This document shows positions 24,775 to 64,000 of a DNA stretch of 64,000 nucleotides, in pieces. Made by a program: the position numbers and the translations under genes. The stretch comes from Escherichia coli. GTDB taxonomy: Bacteria > Pseudomonadota > Gammaproteobacteria > Enterobacterales > Enterobacteriaceae. The stretch is from NCBI RefSeq assembly GCF_009931435.1, contig NZ_CP043414.1; one strand, given 5' to 3'. Numbering within the stretch: position 1 is the first letter of the stretch; every line of letters starts with the position of its first letter. The notes under the pieces are model-generated. The model was not told where the DNA came from, ran no database searches, and was given only the letters and a program-made list of their open reading frames with translations.

Positions 24775-24867
24775 GGTGAGGTGGCCGAGAGGCTGAAGGC
24801 GCTCCCCTGCTAAGGGAGTATGCGGTCAAAAGCTGCATCCGGGGTTCGAATCCCCGCCTCACCGCCA
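24775..24867 (+). tRNA. serV: tRNA-Ser (anticodon GCU)
   Basis: 93-nt sequence GGTGAGGTGGCCGAGAGGCUGAAGG...CCGCCUCACCGCCA with long variable arm and anticodon loop CCUGCUAAG. Confidence 0.93.
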
Positions 24868-24870
24868 TTT

Positions 24871-24947
24871 GCATCCGTAGCTCAGCTGGATAGAGTACTC
24901 GGCTACGAACCGAGCGGTCGGAGGTTCGAATCCTCCCGGATGCACCA
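24871..24947 (+). tRNA. argV: tRNA-Arg (anticodon ACG)
   Basis: GCATCCGTAGCTCAGCTGGATAGAGTACTCGGCTACGAACCGAGCGGTCGGAGGTTCGAATCCTCCCGGATGCACCA; 3 nt after serV. Confidence 0.93.
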
Positions 24948-25082
24948 TATTCTACGAAATCTTCAGCAATGAAGGTGTCGAAGAGGTGGCGGTACTAACC
25001 GCAAGCACCAGGGAGGATAACGTTGCTTTAGCAACGGCCCGAAGGGCGAGCCGTAAGGCGAGTAATCCTCCCGGATGCACCA
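24948..25082 (+). repeat. Spacer repeat unit ending in a tRNA-Arg 3'-terminal fragment (aatcctcccggatgcacca)
   Basis: About 135-nt unit after argV; its last 19 nt duplicate the T-arm/acceptor 3' end plus CCA of tRNA-Arg without the rest of the tRNA. Confidence 0.6.
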
Positions 25083-25146
25083 TCTCTTACTTGATACGGC
25101 TTTAGTAGCGGTATCAAAAAATCTGCAGTAAAGTAAGTTTCCCGAT

Positions 25147-25223
25147 GCATCCGTAGCTCAGCTGGATAGAGTACTCGGCTACGAACCGAGCGGTCGGAGG
25201 TTCGAATCCTCCCGGATGCACCA
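25147..25223 (+). tRNA. argY: tRNA-Arg (anticodon ACG)
   Basis: Identical 77-nt tRNA-Arg copy; spacing to neighbours (276 and 140 nt) matches the argVYZQ arrangement as I recall it. Confidence 0.9.
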
Positions 25224-25286
25224 TCTCTTACTTGATATGGCTTTAGTAGCGATATCAATATCAGCAGTAAAGTAAGTTCTCCCGAT

Positions 25287-25363
25287 GCATCCGTAGCTCA
25301 GCTGGATAGAGTACTCGGCTACGAACCGAGCGGTCGGAGGTTCGAATCCTCCCGGATGCACCA
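25287..25363 (+). tRNA. argZ: tRNA-Arg (anticodon ACG)
   Basis: Identical 77-nt tRNA-Arg copy. Confidence 0.9.
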
Positions 25364-25498
25364 TATTCTCCGAAATCTTCAGCAATGAAGATATCGAAGA
25401 GGTAGCGGAATTAACCGCAGGCACCAGGAAGGATAACGTTGCTTTAGCAACGGCCCGAAGGGCGAGCCGCAAGGCGAGTAATCCTCCCGGATGCACCA
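25364..25498 (+). repeat. Spacer repeat unit ending in a tRNA-Arg 3'-terminal fragment
   Basis: Near-identical copy of the 24948-25082 unit after argZ. Confidence 0.6.
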
Positions 25499-25561
25499 TC
25501 TCTTATTTGATATGGCTTTAGTAGCGGTATCAATATCAGCAGTAAAGTAATTTCTCCCGAT

Positions 25562-25638
25562 GCATCCGTAGCTCAGCTGGATAGAGTACTCGGCTACGAA
25601 CCGAGCGGTCGGAGGTTCGAATCCTCCCGGATGCACCA
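25562..25638 (+). tRNA. argQ: tRNA-Arg (anticodon ACG)
   Basis: Identical 77-nt tRNA-Arg copy; last gene of the operon. Confidence 0.9.
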
Positions 25639-28547: not shown

Positions 28548-28620
28548 AAAAAGGCCACTCGTGAGTGGCCAAAATTTCATCTCTGAATTCAGGGATGATG
28601 ATAACAAATGCGCGTCTTTC
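28548..28620 (-). ncRNA. micA: MicA (SraD) small regulatory RNA
   Basis: Minus strand reads GAAAGACGCGCATTTGTTATCATCATCCCTGAATTCAGAGATGAAATTTTGGCCACTCACGAGTGGCCTTTTT, the MicA sequence as I recall it, with its terminator hairpin GGCCACTCACGAGTGGCC and T-run; located between gshA and luxS. Confidence 0.85.
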
Positions 28621-28688
28621 ATATACTCAGACTCGCCTGGGAAGAAAGAGTTCAGAAAATTTTTAAAAAAATTACCGGAGGTGGCTAA

Positions 28689-29204
28689 ATGCCGTTGTTA
28701 GATAGCTTCACAGTCGATCATACCCGGATGGAAGCGCCTGCAGTTCGGGTGGCGAAAACAATGAACACCCCGCATGGCGACGCAATCACCGTGTTCGATC
28801 TGCGCTTCTGCGTGCCGAACAAAGAAGTGATGCCAGAAAGAGGGATCCATACCCTGGAGCACCTGTTTGCTGGTTTTATGCGTAACCATCTTAACGGTAA
28901 TGGCGTTGAGATTATCGATATCTCGCCAATGGGCTGCCGCACCGGTTTTTATATGAGTCTGATTGGTACGCCAGATGAGCAGCGTGTTGCTGATGCCTGG
29001 AAAGCGGCAATGGAAGACGTGCTGAAAGTGCAGGATCAGAATCAGATCCCGGAACTGAACGTCTACCAGTGTGGTACTTATCAGATGCATTCGTTGCAGG
29101 AAGCGCAGGATATTGCGCGTAATATCCTGGAACGTGACGTACGCATCAACAGCAACGAAGAGTTGGCGCTGCCGAAAGAAAAGTTGCAGGAATTGCACAT
29201 CTAG
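28689..29204 (+). CDS. luxS: S-ribosylhomocysteine lyase (AI-2 synthase)
   Basis: 171-aa [34 protein letters not shown]..., HxxEH metal motif (HTLEHL). Confidence 0.96.
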
Positions 29205-29217
29205 TCAATTGAAGAGG

Positions 29218-29247
29218 CCGGGCAGGTGATATCACCGCCCGGTTTTT
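29218..29247 (+). terminator. Rho-independent terminator of luxS
   Basis: ccgggcaggtgat/atcaccgcccgg hairpin followed by TTTTT, 14 nt after the luxS stop; abuts the stop codon of the convergent 370-aa ORF. Confidence 0.6.
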
Positions 29248-29248
29248 A

Positions 29249-30361
29249 TTACCTGTCAGTCACCCGATATTCCACGCTATGTGCTTCATCAGGTTGAGGA
29301 ACTTCCAGCCTTGAGGCCATCCGCATCACGACCGCTTCAGGAACGGCATACTCGCGCCTGGCATTTTGCTGCTTCCATTGCGCCCACGGTACTTCCAGAT
29401 AAACGATTTTTACTCGTGCACCGTAAGCCGTAAACAGACTGATGAGCTGGCTACGCAACTGGCGGGTAATGTTCGTTGCATTCCAGATGAACGGCTTCTT
29501 CTGGCGTAAAAAAACGCGCGCTTCTTCTTTTGCCTGTTGCACAATACGCCCGGTGGCGGTTTTGTCGTCCGGACTGGCATTGATTCGCCGCCGCATATCA
29601 TCAAGGCTGATAACGTTCACTCTCTGGCACTGTTCACTGATAAAGCGATCTTTGCCCATACCCGGTAAACCACACAGCAAAATAACCTCAAAAGATTCAG
29701 CCTCCCAGGGAACAAAATCAGGAGAACTTTGTTCATGGGTCAGGTAATGCCAGCGTGCGGAATCCGAAGCGAATGAACGCACTTTTCCCCAGCATTGTTG
29801 CTCCTGGCAAAATAGCTTGAACAGATCGATGCGTTCCAGCATTGATTGCTGATCATGACAATGGCGACCAAGCAGATCGGCACGAGCAAGCAAAGCGAGC
29901 AGACGCGTGTCGATACGCATTGCAGCCGTGAGCAGCAAACGCTCCGGTTCCGGACGTTCCAGTAACCATAGCGGTAACCCATGCAGACGCACCAGTGCAA
30001 CAATTTGCTCGCGTAGCACGAACGGTGTCGGGATATCGCGCCATAAAATTTGTCGGGCCGTCAATTCACCCCGACGAGCATGACCAGGGGACTGAATACG
30101 TCCGTTTTCCTGCACGGTAGTACTGCGCTTTTCAACGTCATGCAATAACGCCGCCGCCCATAAAATTTCCTGCTGCTGAGCGGGGAGTTGCTGAAACTCA
30201 GCCATCGCAACGAGTGCGTTCAGCACCATTTCAGTATGCACACCAACGTCGCCTTCACCATGATGCTCCGGGTCTTGCGGCGTGTTATGCATATCCTCAA
30301 CCCAGCTAAAACGCTGGCGTAGCGTCGACCAGCGTTTGTCGTCGGTAAGTTGCCAAATCAT
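29249..30361 (-). CDS. HD-domain phosphoesterase fused to P-loop NTPase (polynucleotide-kinase-like); predicted RNA/DNA end-healing enzyme
   Basis: 370-aa ORF. N-terminal HD signature: [16 protein letters not shown] (res 31-46), AALLHDVEK (res 70-78), ARADLLGR (res 159-166). C-terminal Walker A GLPGMGKD (res 231-238) and Walker B-like NVISLDD (res 249-255). Start overlaps the stop of the upstream ligase-like ORF by 4 nt. Confidence 0.65.
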
Positions 30362-31065
30362 GACTGTTCTCCATAAGCGAACTCATGGGCCATCCGCGCC
30401 CGTCGCCAGTGGCGTTTCCAGTGCTCGGTGGTTTTGACATGATTTTTGCGTACATACTTGAAGACGTTATGCGAAAAGTCAGCGACGGAAAACGCATCAC
30501 TATTCCGGCTGACAATGCCTTCCAGCGTACAGGGTTGCCCGGTTTGCGTATCCCAGGGATCGAACGCGCCGCGCGCATTGGTCAGCGCCAGAAAATCACG
30601 TTGCCAGCTTTTTTCATCATTCCCCGGCTGCGGGCCGGAGATTTCGGGAACGCAGGGGAAATCAAACAGAGCGGCGTAAAACTGCACCTCTTCCCAGCTC
30701 AGCCACATATCCTGGCAGCGAACGGCAAACAGATAAAAATCCTGCTCCAGGGCGCGATATTCAATCGAATGAACGGCATAAAGATTTTCACCAAACAACT
30801 CCAGATCGCCGAGATCGTTTTTCAGCGATTGCCAGCGTTGGCGAATTTTATAGGTCCATGCCGATTCCGTTGGCGCGGCATGGGAACGGGCAAACACGCC
30901 GAAGCGATTAAGACAGTTATTTTCGCCGTCGAGTTTTTCAGTATGTACCAACTGCGAAATTGCCTGCATATCTTGCCAGTAACTGGCGTTAATGCGGTCA
31001 TCGCTGGTGGTGCCAGGGGAGAAGGGATAATGCCAGGTTCTCCCGTATTTACGTTGGATAATCAT
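30358..31065 (-). CDS. Rnl2-like ATP-dependent RNA ligase (nucleotidyltransferase domain only)
   Basis: 235-aa ORF with candidate covalent-nucleotidyltransferase motifs in canonical order and spacing: I KLDG (K44), III LFGE (90-93), IV EGIV (182-185), V KYVRK (203-207). First gene of a 2-gene operon. Confidence 0.6.
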
Positions 31066-31291
31066 AATAATCCATTATTTTGTGTGTAATAAATGTACGC
31101 CCGCGTGGGTGCGAGTTATGGGGTTAAAAGAAAAATGTGAGTATCACCCGCGAAAGCGAGGGCGAAGAAAAAAGAGAGTTAACAACCTGAGCGAATGCTC
31201 AGAACCGATTAATGGTGAATGGAAGAGTTTGGGGCGGCGAAAAGATACACCGTTTGAGATGATAAAACAACCGTTTACAGAATGAGCAAAT

Positions 31292-31312
31292 AAAAAGGGA
31301 GCCGCAGCTCCC
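31292..31312 (-). terminator. Rho-independent terminator of emrB
   Basis: gggagc-cgca-gctccc hairpin; on the minus strand it is followed by TTTTT, about 10 nt after the emrB stop. Confidence 0.55.
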
Positions 31313-31322
31313 TTTGACAACC

Positions 31323-32861
31323 TTAGTGCGCACCGCCTCCGCCGCCACCTGCGCCAAATGGCGGTTTAGCAAACCACACCAGCCCCAGCAGGACGAGGAA
31401 TATCCCGGCTGACATCCAGAAGATCTCATTGGCGGAAATAATCAGCCCCTGATTAGTGATCTGCTGGGCAATCCAGCCTGATGCCTGTTGTTGCGTCATC
31501 CCCAGCCCTTCCAGTTGGCTGTACATCGCCTGAGCGTTCGGGTTAAACGGGTTTACCGACTCGGTTAACTGTGCGTGGTGCATCGACTCGCGGTTGGTCC
31601 ACATAGTCGTCGTAATGGACGTGCCGATAGATCCCGCCAGCGTTCGCGTAAAGTTGGAGAGACTCGATGCCGCCGCCAGTCGTTCCGGTGGCAAACCGGA
31701 CAGCGTAATGGTGGTCAGCGGCATAAAGAAGCAGGCCACCGCGAAGCCCTGGATAAACTGCGGCCAGGCCGACGCACCAAAATCCATACCCGGTTCAAAG
31801 GTATAGGCACGCCAGTAGAAGCAGACGGCATACATAATAAAGCTGAAGGTTACCAGCCGCCGCATATCCAGTTTATGCGCGAAGCGGCCGATAATCGGCG
31901 ACAGGATCACCGGAATAATCCCTACCGGCGCAGAGGCAAGCCCCGCCCAGGTTGCTGTATAGCCGTAGACTTCTTGCAATAACTGCGGCAGCAGAACAAT
32001 CGCGCCGAAGTAGAGCATATACGCGAGGCTGATACACAAGCAGCCGATGGTGAAGTTGCGCGACTTAAACAACGACAGATCGACTATAGGGTTATCGTCG
32101 GTCAGCTCCCAGACAATCAGGAAGCTGATAGCCACCACCGCCACCACGGTGAGGATGATAATTTCCTGTGATGAAAACCAGTCCAGCTCTTTACCCCGGT
32201 CGAGCATAATCTGCAGGCTGCCGATACCAATCACCAGCAGTGCCAGCCCCACGGCATCAATCCGCCGCCGTTCGGTGCGGGTTTCGCGTCCGCGCAGGGT
32301 TTGCAGTGTCATCAACACCACCGCCACGCCAATCGGCACGTTGATGAAGAATATCCAGCCCCAGTGGTAATTATCGCTGATATAACCGCCGAGGATCGGG
32401 CCGCAAATTGGCGCGACAATCACCGTCATCGACCACAACGCCAGCGCGATCGAGCGTTTGGCTGGCGGGTAGTTATTCAGCAATAGACTTTGCGAAAGCG
32501 GGATCAACGGCCCGGCGACAATTCCCTGAATCACGCGGAAGAAGATCAGCATATTCAGGCTGCTGGAGACACCACATGCCCACGATGCAATAGCGAAGGC
32601 GATGGTCGACCAGAGGAACAGCTTCACTTCCCCAACACGTTTTGCCAGCCAGCCGGTAAGCGGGATCGAGATGGCATTCGCCACCCCGAAAGAAGTGATT
32701 ACCCACGTTCCCTGGCTGAGCGATGAGCCCAGGTTTCCGGCGATAGTGGGGATCGCTACGTTAGCAATGGTGGAGTCCAGCACCTGCATGAATGTCGCCA
32801 GTGACAGCGCAATTGTCATAATGACCAGTTGCGCGCCTTCCAGCGGTTTTTGCTGTTGCAT
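31323..32861 (-). CDS. emrB: Multidrug efflux MFS transporter, permease subunit
   Basis: Track ORF 31323-32870; ATG at 32861 gives MQQQKPLEGAQLVIMTIALSLATFMQVLD..., 512 aa, 14-TM MFS. Confidence 0.93.
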   Translation of the reverse strand: MQQQKPLEGAQLVIMTIALSLATFMQVLDSTIANVAIPTIAGNLGSSLSQGTWVITSFGVANAISIPLTGWLAKRVGEVKLFLWSTIAFAIASWACGVSSSLNMLIFFRVIQGIVAGPLIPLSQSLLLNNYPPAKRSIALALWSMTVIVAPICGPILGGYISDNYHWGWIFFINVPIGVAVVLMTLQTLRGRETRTERRRIDAVGLALLVIGIGSLQIMLDRGKELDWFSSQEIIILTVVAVVAISFLIVWELTDDNPIVDLSLFKSRNFTIGCLCISLAYMLYFGAIVLLPQLLQEVYGYTATWAGLASAPVGIIPVILSPIIGRFAHKLDMRRLVTFSFIMYAVCFYWRAYTFEPGMDFGASAWPQFIQGFAVACFFMPLTTITLSGLPPERLAAASSLSNFTRTLAGSIGTSITTTMWTNRESMHHAQLTESVNPFNPNAQAMYSQLEGLGMTQQQASGWIAQQITNQGLIISANEIFWMSAGIFLVLLGLVWFAKPPFGAGGGGGGAH

Positions 32862-57479: not shown

Positions 57480-58571
<1,092 letters not shown>

Positions 58572-58791
58572 TTATTGTGATCAAAAGCAACAAATTAGTA
58601 ACATTTAATGTAGGGTATTAAGGCAAAGGAGACAGGAAATGAATAACTAAAGCAACAGGTTAGGGAGAGCTACCATCAGAGAACAGATTATCTGGTCGAT
58701 AAAAAACAGTAAATGGCTTCACTGCAAAATGACCGTTAGTAAACTAAACATATCATCTGCCCCGTTTTAGCGGGGCAGATATAACATTAAA

Positions 58792-61044
58792 TTACAAATA
58801 GAAATAGTTCGGCGGTTCTCCTGTTTTCCCTAAAAGAAGAGCGCTGCGCCCAGGAATATTGATATTTAGAGCTCCGCCTCTAAGCGTAAATACTTTACCA
58901 GGGGGAATACTTTTGCGTGTATTATTATTATTAATGGTAATGCTATTACTCCCCATGTTTTTATATATTCCTGGTTGCAATTTGTTAGGCCAGGTACCTT
59001 CAACTTCTTCGTTTCCTTTATTTATTATAACTAGTCCATCATGAGGAGAGTGATTAATGTTCACAGAATCCCCACGACTAAAGGCCAGAACATTTTTAGT
59101 TGCAAATACACCCTCAAATGCGCTCCATATTCCTTCTTTATCTATATATAATGCGTGGAATTCATTGTAGAGCTGCTGATAGGTAGAGCAACCTTTATTA
59201 AGCCACGCCTCACCGCCGACACGAGTGGACCCATCATCATTTTTAATCTCAGTCGTTGATTTTAATACCTGACCATCCCAGTAAACTAAAGGCCTGCTGA
59301 ACGGGAGAGCGGCCATATATGCCATTGCTAATTGTTCATCTTGCTGATGGTTAAATAAAAAGTCATTGAAAAGATTACCATTGTTAGGGAAATCGTGGTT
59401 GATGTTAATCAATATCCGTCTTTCTGATGGGATGCTTGAGATTGCGGAACCCGGTTTTGATGCAAGGGTTTGGAGATCTCCACCGAATGAAAAGGCTTTT
59501 ATCGTCTTCATGAGCAATGAAAAATCAATGGCGCTTAAATCATCTCTTTCATAAAGCAGCGATGACATTTGTTGTTCATCTAACGGACAAGTTACCAGGT
59601 ATTCCATGTAATTCATAACAGCTTTTTTTTGATATTTTGGATTAAATAAATTTGTATTGTGCAACCGCTCATTATAATTTTTAAGCGGTGGGGTTATCGA
59701 CCTCTCTATTTGTTCATGTTTTGAGTGTTTTGCTGCATCATAACGTAAACCTCGTACGCCATATTTTCGCATTTCACGAACGTATTGATTTTGCAACATA
59801 ATAACCTGGTCACTTTTGGGTGTTGTTTTAGGCATTCCATTTAAACGCTTTTCTTTTAATGCATGGAGGTTTTCCCATTCATCCTTAGAAATATTATCTT
59901 TACTTGCTTCGAAGTCTTTTGCAGTGAGATGTATATCTTCTGGATGGATTTGGTCACGTTCTTTTGTTACTGGATCTATAATAAAGGGAATCAAGACCTG
60001 ACCTTGCCAATAGCCAGGGATACCACTTTCTATATCTTTACTAATCTTCGCTCGTATATCGGCAGAGGGATAATCCAGATCATTTTTACCACTTCCTCCG
60101 ATCCCCATAAAGTTAAATGTATAATCAGGAATGATATCGATGCCAAATTTTTTGGCATCTTTAACCAATGCGATAAAATCCTGCAAATCTCCCATTGGAT
60201 TATGAATGGTACAAAGATCTTCGGGTTGATAAGCGTGATACCAGTAACCTTTTTCTTCTTCAGGTGTTTCTGGTCCGTCGGCGCGGAAAGTTGTTACGGG
60301 AGGGATTTGTATATAACCATAATGGCAACGTGCAAACTCCGCCATATTTTTCCTGATTTGCTGGTAGGTGGCATTAAAAGCATGAAGAATCGCCTCGCCA
60401 GGTTTTTTGGGTGTGATGATTTCACATTGTGATTTCTGATCAGCAGTAAGAGATTTACGCTCAAGTGTTTGCCGTAGATGTTCTGGATTGATTAATATTT
60501 TAAATGTTTCTTGCTGGCCGGAAGGTGACGTTACGTTAATATTATATACATCAGCTGCCAGTTCATAGTCAGGAATGTTAATAGCATATGCAACATACTT
60601 ATCTTTTGGAGACGGTTTGTCAGATATAATGTGAGTGAAATGTTCAGCTGGACCATACTGATGAACACCGCTGTTATCACCTCTTTCAATCATTGTATCT
60701 CGTTGATAAACCCATGTTTTTCCTTCTCCTATCCTGTCTGGCGCTGTAATGCTACGCTGTGCTGCTTTATTCAACTCTCGGTAAGTTGTATCTGGAAAAA
60801 GGGAAATTTTATAATCGTTTTTTAACAGATCATTAATGACTTTTTCTGCGTGAAAAGTTGATATAATTTCTCTGTCTTTTAAATCCTGAGGATAAACTCC
60901 ACAAGAATTAATAATATTTGTTATACAGTTTAGATATTCTAATGTATTTAATTTGGAATTTAGATTCCCGTCAGTAATGTTCCATGATAACAATGTGGGG
61001 TTGTCGATAGGTAAATTTCTTGGTCCTGGTTTTATAGAAAACAT
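58792..61044 (-). CDS. ygaQ: GH13 alpha-amylase-family protein (intact; recalled as fragmented pseudogene in K-12)
   Basis: 750-aa uninterrupted ORF in an AT-rich region; contains alpha-amylase region-II-like motif GVRGLRYDAAKH. Confidence 0.75.
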   Translation of the reverse strand: MFSIKPGPRNLPIDNPTLLSWNITDGNLNSKLNTLEYLNCITNIINSCGVYPQDLKDREIISTFHAEKVINDLLKNDYKISLFPDTTYRELNKAAQRSITAPDRIGEGKTWVYQRDTMIERGDNSGVHQYGPAEHFTHIISDKPSPKDKYVAYAINIPDYELAADVYNINVTSPSGQQETFKILINPEHLRQTLERKSLTADQKSQCEIITPKKPGEAILHAFNATYQQIRKNMAEFARCHYGYIQIPPVTTFRADGPETPEEEKGYWYHAYQPEDLCTIHNPMGDLQDFIALVKDAKKFGIDIIPDYTFNFMGIGGSGKNDLDYPSADIRAKISKDIESGIPGYWQGQVLIPFIIDPVTKERDQIHPEDIHLTAKDFEASKDNISKDEWENLHALKEKRLNGMPKTTPKSDQVIMLQNQYVREMRKYGVRGLRYDAAKHSKHEQIERSITPPLKNYNERLHNTNLFNPKYQKKAVMNYMEYLVTCPLDEQQMSSLLYERDDLSAIDFSLLMKTIKAFSFGGDLQTLASKPGSAISSIPSERRILININHDFPNNGNLFNDFLFNHQQDEQLAMAYMAALPFSRPLVYWDGQVLKSTTEIKNDDGSTRVGGEAWLNKGCSTYQQLYNEFHALYIDKEGIWSAFEGVFATKNVLAFSRGDSVNINHSPHDGLVIINKGNEEVEGTWPNKLQPGIYKNMGSNSITINNNNTRKSIPPGKVFTLRGGALNINIPGRSALLLGKTGEPPNYFYL

Positions 61045-61604
61045 AATAAAGTTCCTCTAATGGTAGAGTAATATGGTGTATACGGAAACATAAAAATGTT
61101 TAATTGTTGTGAAAGTAATTGCAAACAGATGTCCTACTTTTATCCAATATTTATATGGAAAAGGATAATGCTTAAATCTGTTTTTTTAATTATCGATGTG
61201 GTCTGGAGAGGCAACTGTCAAAAATCGCTCATACGAAACTAATGATTAGCAGAATAAGATCTATGAAAGAATATATTGCTATATGAAGTTTATTTTTATG
61301 GGGTGAAAAGTAACAGATATCATAATGATGCGAAAACTCTTCAGTTAATGTAATAAACTTATATTATTAGATACAAAATCATTACAAAGTATCATTGAAT
61401 CGATGATAACTATAGATTGTGCTAATTATTAACATTTGCTTGTTGACTGCGAGTATCGACTTTGCGAATGGAGGTGGTGTCGGGTTTTATGTCGCATGTA
61501 TTGACGACCCAGGATGGATGAGAACGCATAAAAAATCTGTTATTTACATCATAAGATCATCATGTTTATTGCGTGGTTTATAAGTATTGTTATTGCATAC
61601 TCAA

Positions 61605-61680
61605 GGCCCTTTAGCTCAGTGGTTAGAGCAGACGACTCATAATCGCCTGGTCGCTGGTTCAAGTCCAGCAAGGGCCACCA
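61605..61680 (+). tRNA. ileY: tRNA-Ile2 (anticodon CAU, lysidine-modified type)
   Basis: GGCCCTTTAGCTCAGTGGTTAGAGCAGACGACTCATAATCGCCTGGTCGCTGGTTCAAGTCCAGCAAGGGCCACCA; cloverleaf with anticodon loop CTCATAA; adjacent to ygaQ as in K-12. Confidence 0.9.
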
Positions 61681-62431
61681 AATCAGCATTCTTGTATCAG
61701 GAAGAGTTAAGGGTACAAGGGGTACTCGATGGCGGTCTATATTTCACGACTAACGCCATTTCAAGGAAGAAGTGTGGTGGGTGGTTTCGAATGAGGGCTG
61801 GTGTTTTGGTACGTGGCACGCCACTGCAATGTATTTATCCATCAGTACTCATTCAAAAGTACCTGGAAAAAATGCCCGCTATGCCAAGCGGGCAAATTGC
61901 TTACATGTGGAATTAAGTAATTAACGATAAAGCCAGAGTATTATCATTTATTATACCCCTTCATTTAATCAGGTTAATTACTCAAATCACTGAACTATTC
62001 TCTGTTCGCTCACTTATGCTGAGTGAGTACCACGACCAATGTATGTAGAACAATGCCGTAGAGTAAGGATGAAATGTCTCTGCCACGCCTTAAACATCTA
62101 CTACTGACTAGAACCGCCGTCGCATGCAGAAGAGTCTTGTGAGCGTTACAGGAGTCTGGCTTTGCTCATTAATCAACGCTATTTAGATATAAATTTCTAA
62201 TACTCGAAAAACGATTTTCACAAATAAATTATAACGGATGGTTTTTATCATACAGCGAAATAACCTTTTGTTTATTAAATTTAACATTCCTGTGCTAAAT
62301 TAATTAAAAGTACCATGTATAGCATATGAATCTGTTAATGCCAGCAATTGTCTCAAATGAGCGATTTTTTATAGTGACTAACAATAATAACATTAAAAAT
62401 AGTCATGTAGACATTAACTGAGGAAAAGACA

Positions 62432-63886
62432 ATGTTAGTTAGTAAAAGCAACGAAATTAACACTAGCACATTTATAAATAGTGGAAATTGTAATGAAAGA
62501 AAATCTTCTAAATCCATGGAGTTACTAGCTTATAGTATTATAAAATTAATTTGTAAAGAAGCTGCCTCAGGGACGTATAACGGTGCTCTTGAAATTTTAC
62601 AAAAAATGATGTCTGAATGTAAATATCATGAAGGCAATGCTTTTGTCATTATGGGAGCCGGAGAACAATTAAAACGTATTAAATATGATGCTAATGAAAA
62701 TAAATTAAAAGTATACAACGTACACTTTGATAATAATCAAGAGTTAGTTGCTGATGGTGAGCCTGACGTAGTATTTTTAAAAAAAACGGTGTGGGAAGAC
62801 CTTCTCGTTAAACTAAATCTGGAGAACAAAGAAAATGCGGTTTCTGAAATTAACCTGTCATCTAATAAAAATAATGTTGATCAGTTTATTGAATGCGCTA
62901 AGAGAAATGAACAGACCCTATTCGACAATATAAGAAAAAGTGATTTTCATGTTGCTTCACTTCAGCCAGGTAGAACGCGTAGTGTTATTTCAGAAACGCC
63001 GCCAAATGACTGTATGGAATCACCTAATTTATATGAAAACCACACAGATAAGGTTTCAACTGTAACTAAAAATTCTCAGCAAGTTAAAGGTCACTATGGA
63101 GATAAGTTGAAAGAAATGCAGTTGTTCCTCAACCAGATGAGCAATGCACTTCAACAGGATTCATCTTTGTTAGAGTCAAAGGAACACACCATAGATATTC
63201 AAGAAAAAACGAATAAGTTTGTGCAGCATTTTCAGCGGGTATTATTTGATAAAAATGGAAGGTCATCAGAGTTTCTACTTAATTTTTATGAGTGTTGCTA
63301 TAAGTTTTTACCAAGAGCGCAGCCTCAAGATAAAATCGATAGCTATAATTCAGCACTGCAAGCTTTTTCCATCTTTTGTTCATCTACGTTCACACATAAT
63401 AATGTAGGGTTTAATTTCAAATTATTTCCAGAAGTCAAACTGTCTGGAGGAGATCTTGAAACGGTATTCAAATACAAAAATGGCAATTTTGTCTGGGAGA
63501 TAGCCAGAATTAAAATTACTCTCCCAAAAGAAGAGGGTGGTTTATATAATTTAGGTGGATTGGACTTTAAGGGGTGCTTCTTTTCTGGACAGAACTTCAG
63601 TAACTATGATATTAAATATGTGAACTGGGGGACGTCATTGTTTGATGTTGATACTCCGTGTATTTTTAATACGCCTGCTAACAATGAGAGTTATGAAAAA
63701 TCATTAAAGCCTGTGAGCGAAAACGGTTTAAATGGAGTCTTATCTGATCGTAATAAAAAAATAAAAATGATCACGGGCGTGGCACCATTCGATGGTATTT
63801 CATCTATGGATGATGACTTTGATGATAGTTCCTCTGAGGATGAGCCCGTTGAGAATAGTCCTGTTGTGACTAGGCCCCTTGTATAA
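62432..63886 (+). CDS. Hypothetical protein, AT-rich (about 30% GC by eye), probable horizontally acquired island gene
   Basis: 484-aa ORF 750 bp downstream of the tRNA-Ile 3' end. Contains about six tandem 5-residue repeats with hydrophobic centre (GLDFK GCFFS GQNFS NYDIK YVNWG TSLFD) and an acidic Ser/Asp/Glu-rich C-terminal tail. Confidence 0.55.
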   Translation: MLVSKSNEINTSTFINSGNCNERKSSKSMELLAYSIIKLICKEAASGTYNGALEILQKMMSECKYHEGNAFVIMGAGEQLKRIKYDANENKLKVYNVHFDNNQELVADGEPDVVFLKKTVWEDLLVKLNLENKENAVSEINLSSNKNNVDQFIECAKRNEQTLFDNIRKSDFHVASLQPGRTRSVISETPPNDCMESPNLYENHTDKVSTVTKNSQQVKGHYGDKLKEMQLFLNQMSNALQQDSSLLESKEHTIDIQEKTNKFVQHFQRVLFDKNGRSSEFLLNFYECCYKFLPRAQPQDKIDSYNSALQAFSIFCSSTFTHNNVGFNFKLFPEVKLSGGDLETVFKYKNGNFVWEIARIKITLPKEEGGLYNLGGLDFKGCFFSGQNFSNYDIKYVNWGTSLFDVDTPCIFNTPANNESYEKSLKPVSENGLNGVLSDRNKKIKMITGVAPFDGISSMDDDFDDSSSEDEPVENSPVVTRPLV

Positions 63887-64000
63887 AGTTCTAAAAGCAG
63901 TTTTCAATGATAAATAAATGGCGATTTTTACAAAGAGATAATAACGTAGATTGAAATAATATGTATTATTGATTGAGTAAACGGGATTATTCTTCACACT

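Follow-up and report, generated by a model that had tools for sequence, protein, structure and literature searches.

A probable HD-Pnk end-healing enzyme in Escherichia coli with Asp in Walker A and Asn in Walker B

Can a P-loop kinase work with Asp at the place in Walker A that Ser or Thr canonically holds, and what would such a protein, with an HD phosphoesterase in front of the kinase, do in Escherichia coli? The question is raised by an open reading frame (ORF) in a 64,000-nucleotide stretch of E. coli DNA (RefSeq assembly GCF_009931435.1, contig NZ_CP043414.1; the whole stretch is called the window below). Its P-loop reads GLPGMGK-D instead of ending in the canonical GK-S/T; the residue after the lysine is referred to as K+1. 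A first-pass annotation had proposed two readings, a distinct solution to the healing of nucleic-acid ends or a regulatory nucleotide hydrolase. We consider it very probable that this ORF encodes the HD-Pnk orthologue of E. coli, a bifunctional enzyme that heals nucleic-acid ends, and that it shares a two-gene accessory operon with a minimal ATP-dependent ligase, alongside which it is produced. The protein has an N-terminal HD domain with His/Asp ligands, the expected kinase residues in its C-terminal half and full-length homology to known HD-Pnk enzymes, and a ligase gene lies upstream. The features concerned are the following:

29249..30361, minus strand: HD-Pnk ORF, ATG start, 370 amino acids and stop codon (ORF list)
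29732..30361, minus strand: predicted all-helical HD phosphoesterase domain, N-terminal, residues 1-210 (family-conserved residues given below)
30137..30142, minus strand: HD dyad H74-D75 (translation; corresponds by alignment to H81-D82 of DR_B0098 of Deinococcus radiodurans)
29252..29692, minus strand: predicted P-loop 5'-OH polynucleotide kinase domain, C-terminal, residues 224-370 (AAA_33, E 2e-31)
29648..29671, minus strand: Walker A motif GLPGMGK-D, residues 231-238, with K237-D238 (translation; alignment to CthPnk, the kinase module of Clostridium thermocellum Pnkp)
29591..29602, minus strand: D254-D-M-R257, predicted general-base Asp and acceptor-phosphate Arg (aligned to D38/R41 of CthPnk and D35/R38 of T4 Pnk)
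29471..29494, minus strand: Walker-B strand PFIW-N294-ATN, with Asn replacing the usual Asp (translation, alignment, model and covariation)
29354..29356, minus strand: R336, predicted lid arginine (aligns with CthPnk R120 and DR_B0098 R375)
30358..31065, minus strand: partner ligase ORF, minimal ATP-dependent RNA-ligase family, 235 amino acids (Pfam RNA_ligase PF09414, E 7.6e-28)

The domain order described by the first-pass annotation, HD phosphoesterase before kinase, is borne out by Pfam, which places HD (PF01966, E 1.6e-3) at residues 41-139 and AAA_33 (PF13671) at residues 226-355; the P-loop reading and the numbering of K237/D238 and H74/D75 proved exact on translation. In NCBIfam the N-terminal half matches HDIG proteins and the HD region of the multifunctional CCA enzyme, and the C-terminal half matches the kinase modules of bacterial Pnkp, PSTK and PNK-3'Pase. 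The AlphaFold2 model, run with an alignment of 114 sequences, shows two domains (pLDDT 97.4, pTM 0.94). More than 2,300 homologues of the protein were found, 587 representatives of them at E<=1e-30. Because of these numbers and the confident model, the ORF is a real gene and not a chance ORF.

Conservation was read from a diverse set of 142 full-length sequences (three references and 139 representatives from clustering at 50% identity), to which counts refer below unless another set is named. The catalytic residues are 95-100% conserved in this set although its members share at most ~50% pairwise identity. In the HD domain H34, E36, H42, H74-D75, K78, H94, H127, D162 and R166 are conserved across the family, H74 in 140 and D75 in 141 sequences. 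In the kinase domain K237, D254, R257, R303 and R336 are each kept in at least 95%, D254 and R257 in 139 sequences each. The nearest solved sequences and folds to this domain are CthPnk, T4 Pnk, mammalian PNKP and PSTK, with CthPnk closest both by sequence (E 8.5e-5) and by Foldseek (TM 0.75). K237, D254, R257 and R336 align with K21, D38, R41 and R120 of CthPnk, whose roles have been established by crystal structures and mutagenesis (R120 contacts the gamma-phosphate), and the equivalents of D254 and R257 are essential in T4 Pnk as well as in CthPnk.

The combination of an N-terminal HD domain with a C-terminal kinase is the architecture of the known HD-Pnk family and is not new. HD-Pnk of Runella slithyformis (Munir & Shuman 2017, J Bacteriol 199:e00739-16) is reported to combine a 2',3'-phosphoesterase with a 5'-OH kinase and is titled a DNA/RNA end-healing enzyme. 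We located its gene by way of RslTpt1 of PDB 7KW8, which led to the cluster member AEI48608.1 and from there to the chromosome region. The region matches the layout described in the literature (Tpt1, MTase-HIT, a spacer of ~152 nt, a ligase gene overlapping that of HD-Pnk): it holds Tpt1, MTase-HIT, a 151-nt spacer and a ligase gene overlapping the gene for a 368-amino-acid HD-Pnk. The E. coli protein has the same domain order and nearly the same length (370 amino acids), is 51% identical over 368 residues with one gap, and shares the GK-D Walker A, the Asn at Walker B and the overlapping upstream ligase gene, whose product is 59% identical. The clusters differ in that Tpt1 and MTase-HIT precede the ligase gene in R. 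slithyformis, whereas the E. coli cassette consists of ligase and HD-Pnk only. The E. coli gene is thus an additional member of HD-Pnk, and GK-D is already present in the best-characterised member.

The second known relative is DR_B0098, whose sequence was taken from the D. radiodurans megaplasmid MP1. It was predicted to be a fusion of HD phosphohydrolase and polynucleotide kinase, and 5'-kinase activity on a 5'-OH DNA oligonucleotide was reported in 2007. It is required for the radiation resistance of D. radiodurans. Like the E. coli protein it has the HD domain before the kinase, is colinear over its full length (28% identity, E 1e-29) and has a ligase homologue, DR_B0100, upstream. It differs in its canonical Walker motifs (GPSGSGK-S and VWDATT, with Asp at Walker B), in its length of 413 amino acids with a longer interdomain linker, and in the PARG/macro-like gene that lies between the ligase and HD-Pnk genes of the D. 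radiodurans LIG-PARG-HD-Pnk operon. A recent proposal ties the Deinococcus operon to the reversal of ADP-ribosylation of RNA ends.

Compared with the better known end-healing enzymes, HD-Pnk is indeed a distinct solution, as the first-pass annotation had suggested; it is, however, one that has already been characterised in Runella and in DR_B0098. In bacteriophage T4 Pnkp the kinase is N-terminal, the phosphatase is of the HAD/DxD type, the Walker A motif is GxxGxGK-S and an HD domain is absent. The E. coli protein has no HAD domain in Pfam or NCBIfam and carries its kinase at the C-terminus, so that only the kinase fold is common to both. C. thermocellum Pnkp (of the Pnkp-Hen1 system) joins a kinase with the P-loop GSSGSGKST, in which Ser22 ligates Mg, to a calcineurin-type metallophosphoesterase and an adenylyltransferase. 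The E. coli protein reaches 36 bits with its model TIGR04075, whose cutoff is 750, and matches profile positions 8-137 (the kinase) only; there is also no Hen1-like neighbour of HD-Pnk in the ORF list of the window. Class-II CCA-adding enzymes and tRNA nucleotidyltransferases have a related HD domain, which in HD-Pnk lacks the nucleotidyltransferase head and is fused to a kinase instead. The polynucleotide kinase/3'-phosphatase of phage RM378, compared here by its description only, also combines a 5'-kinase with an HD-type 3'-phosphohydrolase, but in the reverse order (5'-kinase, then 3'-HD), as in other viral PNKPs.

Is GK-D a peculiarity of this strain? The first-pass annotation had asked whether the motif is conserved among homologues, and it is: residue 238 is Asp in 109 of the 142 diverse sequences, Ser in 21, Thr in 4, Asn in 6 and Glu in 2, and GK-D is found in 117/120 close homologues, in 208/211 close homologues of full length and in 96/96 further relatives of the Bacteroidota type. 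R. slithyformis HD-Pnk reads GLPGTGK-D at Walker A and FVF-N-ATN at Walker B. A strain-specific substitution or a sequencing error in a canonical GK-S/T kinase is refuted by this census, and there is practically nothing left to recommend it; the same cassette is moreover carried by almost 1,000 complete E. coli genomes. Homologues with GK-S/T, which the first-pass annotation would have taken as a sign of such a substitution, do exist (25/142, among them the characterised DR_B0098), but they represent a minority state of the family and do not point to a strain-specific change here. Judged from the aligned sequences, GK-D is the normal, functional and majority state of HD-Pnk, with Ser/Thr or Asn at K+1 in a minority. 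Since the R. slithyformis enzyme carries GK-D, there is already a reported case of an active polynucleotide kinase with this motif. A literature search on the "GKD" Walker A in kinases returned nothing relevant, the original descriptions of HD-Pnk being outside its reach.

A different doubt concerns activity and substrate. The E. coli protein has Asp238 at K+1 and Asn294 at the Walker-B position, two coupled deviations from the canonical motifs that are found throughout the family. With both hallmark residues replaced, the domain could be a degenerate kinase or NTP-binding switch, and in torsinA and DnaC an Asn at K+1 is associated with very low ATPase activity. The protein might also be a regulatory nucleotide hydrolase or a small-molecule kinase and have nothing to do with polynucleotide ends: nucleotides are frequent substrates of HD domains, GppA/PPX and HD-GYP proteins are among the structural neighbours, and AAA_33 covers small-molecule kinases too. 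We nevertheless regard these readings as very improbable. D254 and R257, the polynucleotide-specific residues that make up the acceptor site of the T4 and Cth enzymes, are at least 95% conserved together with the lid residue R336; the top structural matches are polynucleotide kinases; and the D/N configuration is shared with the Runella enzyme, which reportedly phosphorylates 5'-OH polynucleotides. Of 16 named loci, which come from six phyla and two huge phage genomes, 14 carry a gene of the ligase family immediately upstream of HD-Pnk, and R. slithyformis does likewise. The suggestion of a regulatory nucleotide hydrolase is therefore not upheld, given the conserved kinase residues, the coupling to a ligase and the Runella orthologue with the same GK-D.

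For the E. coli enzyme we thus predict the activities reported for its Runella and Deinococcus relatives, a 5'-OH kinase that depends on Mg and NTP and a 2',3'-phosphoesterase that depends on a transition metal. At the metal site of the HD domain (H34, H42, H74-D75, H94, H127 and D162), 2',3'-cyclic-phosphate, 3'-phosphate and 2'-phosphate ends would be converted to hydroxyl ends. The P-loop domain would transfer the gamma-phosphate of an NTP to a 5'-OH end, with K237 and Mg2+ holding the beta and gamma phosphates, D254 acting as the general base, R257 gripping the acceptor phosphate and the lid residue R336 touching the gamma phosphate. The resulting 3'-OH and 5'-PO4 ends are the type of substrate expected for the co-translated ligase, which would be adenylylated at K44 and join them. 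A cassette of HD domain, kinase and ligase that heals and seals appears to be the best-supported reading, and the ligase-family gene upstream in 14 of the 16 loci speaks for it. Counting against it, the HD match in Pfam is weak when taken alone (E 1.6e-3), and the partner ligases of Runella and Deinococcus reportedly adenylylate themselves yet did not seal standard substrates in vitro, which leaves healing followed by sealing a putative pathway.

Whether the natural substrate is RNA or DNA is a separate matter, on which the evidence points both ways. That the cassette acts on DNA breaks, the Pfam name RNA_ligase being misleading, is a real if lesser possibility. D. radiodurans lacking DR_B0098 becomes more sensitive to ionising radiation, the enzyme phosphorylates a DNA oligonucleotide, and the Runella enzyme carries DNA as well as RNA in its published title. 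On the other side, the Runella cluster holds Tpt1, an RNA 2'-phosphotransferase, the HD half is closest to tRNA nucleotidyltransferase (CCA-type) enzymes, the ligase belongs to the RNA_ligase family of Pfam, and related cassettes occur in huge phages, for which a part in RNA repair has been proposed; these points are not decisive.

We now turn to the role of Asp238. Its equivalent in CthPnk, Ser22, is essential and is the one residue of that protein to ligate the catalytic Mg2+; hence Asp238 occupies a metal-ligand position, and it may ligate Mg directly. Asn294 terminates the strand 291-294 of the AlphaFold2 model and aligns with the Asp of CthPnk VV-D-ATN, of PSTK and of DR_B0098 VW-D-ATT, which identifies it as the Walker-B position. 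The corresponding T4 motif presumably reads SDTN where CthPnk has DATN, which would shift the T4 Asp one residue later. We considered N294 as a possible counterpart of Asp85, an essential residue of T4 Pnk, but dropped this as uncertain; the T4 paper also gives Asp85 a structural role.

Among all alignment columns, 294 is the most informative on residue 238, with a mutual information of 0.49 bits versus 0.20 for the next-best column. The pairs at 238/294 are distributed as follows (n=142):

Asp/Asn: 106
Ser/Asp: 15
Asn/Asn: 6
Thr/Asp: 4
Ser/Asn: 4
Asp/Ser: 2
Asp/Gly, Glu/Asn, Glu/Asp, Ser/Ser and Ser/Glu: 1 each
Asp/Asp: 0

Thus 106 of the 109 GK-D sequences have Asn294 and 19 of the 25 GK-S/T sequences have Asp294 (Fisher p 3e-19, a test that treats the sequences as independent and makes no phylogenetic correction). 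Close homologues readable at both positions (n=198) comprise 196 with Asp/Asn and none with Asp/Asp. Asp/Asn is found in E. coli, two Runella species, Chondrinema, Sphaerospermopsis, Miltoncostaea, Bosea and a 462-kb uncultured phage; Ser/Asp in three Deinococcus species, Methylorubrum, Vibrio and a 549-kb phage-like contig; and Asn/Asn in Variovorax, Ralstonia and a P. aeruginosa plasmid. The D and the S/T state each occur in several phyla.

In a survey of 3,136 P-loop catalytic sites (Kozlova et al. 2022), the K+1 Ser/Thr and the Walker-B Asp are described as strictly conserved and hydrogen-bonded partners, with Asn and Gly as the only exceptions at K+1 in the searchable parts of its text. 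Against this background the coupled exchange suggests that GK-D members carry the carboxylate of the metal site on Walker A, to which it was relocated from Walker B, and HD-Pnk may retain a single Mg-site carboxylate that can be placed on either partner. Most HD-Pnk proteins would then have a Walker pair of swapped polarity, with Asp at K+1 (probably a direct Mg2+ ligand) and Asn at Walker B, and the family would have switched repeatedly, both residues always changing and never leaving two Asp. We put this forward tentatively, with slightly more doubt than belief. Relocations of the Walker-B carboxylate are known from other proteins covered by Kozlova et al. 2022: the metazoan Clp1 polynucleotide kinase has Asn at Walker B, its role being assumed by a Glu at another place, and yeasts show the reverse, so that a second polynucleotide kinase has a covarying swap; in MglA the carboxylate is relocated likewise. 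Clp1 and MglA retain Thr/Ser at K+1 according to the same source, whereas in HD-Pnk the acidic residue stands at K+1 itself.

Several points weigh against the swap. The Asn/Asn members (6/142), with no carboxylate at either site, and the Ser/Asn members (4/142) do not fit a relocation, and because they exist a carboxylate at one of the two positions is not obligatory. The contact between 238 and 294 in HD-Pnk draws on general structural knowledge of P-loop proteins, and the covariation statistics are phylogenetically uncorrected, with a poorly resolved neighbour-joining (NJ) tree.

These points leave room for the explanation that the covariation is a phylogenetic artefact of lineage markers that happen to be linked, in which case Asp238 would be no relocated carboxylate. 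The statistics ignore shared ancestry, the star-like tree cannot be relied on, and members with Asn/Asn or Ser/Asn speak for the artefact as well. Nevertheless we hold it to be unlikely. The S/T members form no detectable clade: their mean identity to one another (0.370) does not exceed by much that between D and S/T members (0.360) or among D members (0.363), and this holds for each domain taken singly. A D-type sequence is the nearest neighbour of 14 of the 25 S/T sequences, and both states occur within the Hyphomicrobiales (Bosea with D/N, Methylorubrum with S/D). In addition, Asp/Asp is absent from the diverse and the close homologues alike, the two positions are known hydrogen-bond partners at the Mg site of P-loop NTPases, and column 294 stands far above all other columns. 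In the NJ tree the S/T members fall into 17 groups; since the tree resolves such divergence poorly, 17 is the most that the count of independent switches can be. The coupled exchange may be the one feature that goes beyond what is known of HD-Pnk and is worth following up. Current models give the pair of K+1 and Walker-B Asp a universal catalytic role, and the exchange of Asp238/Asn294 for Ser/Asp offers a ready test of what the two residues do in phosphoryl transfer.

The Asn/Asn subgroup (Variovorax, the P. aeruginosa plasmid and Ralstonia) pairs with a distinct, longer ligase subfamily of ~285 amino acids, which has hardly any similarity to the ligase of E. coli. Pairs of ligase and HD-Pnk were also seen on very large phage or phage-like genomes, LR756500 (462 kb, Asp/Asn) and a 549-kb ENA contig with ERF and AAA_23 genes (Ser/Asp).

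The E. coli ligase has the KxDG motif EKLDGE, with K44 at 30934-30936, and is 35% identical to DR_B0100. Its stop codon overlaps the start codon of HD-Pnk (ATGA), and a GGAG lies 7 nt 5' of the ATG; the two genes are therefore probably translationally coupled. The cassette and its borders comprise the following features:

29207..31320, no strand: accessory segment, 2,114 bp, GC 0.51, replacing the 59-bp luxS-emrB spacer (blastn against K-12)
29217..29248, plus strand: GC-rich hairpin CCGGGC..GGTGATATCACC..GCCCGG followed by a T-run, probable terminator, between the convergent luxS and HD-Pnk stop codons (read from the sequence)
31066..31320, minus strand: 255-bp region 5' of the ligase gene, with an emrB terminator at 31294-31315 and weak promoter-like sites at 31061-31090 (consensus pattern matches only)

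The GC content of the segment equals that of its flanks; a repeat scan found no flanking repeats beyond chance, and the segment holds no mobility genes. Among 5,426 complete E. coli genomes, 994 (~18%) carry the cassette, in every case on the chromosome. In these genomes the HD-Pnk gene is currently annotated as "AAA family ATPase" or "ATP-binding protein", next to an "RNA ligase family protein". In about 1,000 complete genomes the gene could thus be renamed HD-Pnk, polynucleotide 5'-kinase/2',3'-phosphoesterase, and its partner named a DR_B0100/Runella-type ligase. E. coli, the easiest genetic system, has its own native copy of the Runella/Deinococcus repair cassette.

Rfam gave no match within the cassette, and none of the PADLOC-DB models matched HD-Pnk or the ligase at E<=0.01, so that a known anti-phage defence system was considered and found to have no basis. 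The hairpin at 29217-29248 stands in place of the bidirectional luxS/emrB terminator of K-12; a consensus terminator scan was silent on it because the stem is bulged.

The surroundings of the Runella clusters hold further genes. In R. slithyformis and in Runella sp. an HNH_4-domain gene precedes the cluster, its end overlapping Tpt1. A gene for a RecQ-type helicase follows downstream, directly in R. slithyformis and with one gene between in Runella sp., where a DUF1016/YhcG gene is also inserted between the MTase-HIT and ligase genes.

In the window the cassette is flanked on one side by alaS, csrA, a Ser/Arg tRNA cluster, yqaB, yqaA, gshA, MicA and luxS, and on the other by emrB, emrA and emrR, genes that identify the window as part of an E. 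coli chromosome. As in K-12, the MicA small RNA (28549-28620, minus strand; Rfam RF00078, 83.9 bits) is encoded between gshA and luxS. Five tRNA genes at 24775-25635 (plus strand), four of which share identical Rfam scores at distances of ~140-275 bp, correspond to the serV-argVYZQ array of K-12; short spurious ORFs overlap this cluster on both strands. The region 28600-31400 is 98.7% identical to its best E. coli match and 95-99% identical to most genomes, and it follows from the best match that the lineage of the window is identical to no complete RefSeq genome in the collection. Towards the end of the window, at 58000-64000, the GC content falls to 0.34-0.41. This part is variable and probably horizontally acquired, because only about half of the complete genomes cover at least 80% of it; its annotation in E. 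coli genomes includes an alpha-amylase-family protein, ypjC-like genes, glaH and tRNA-Ile.

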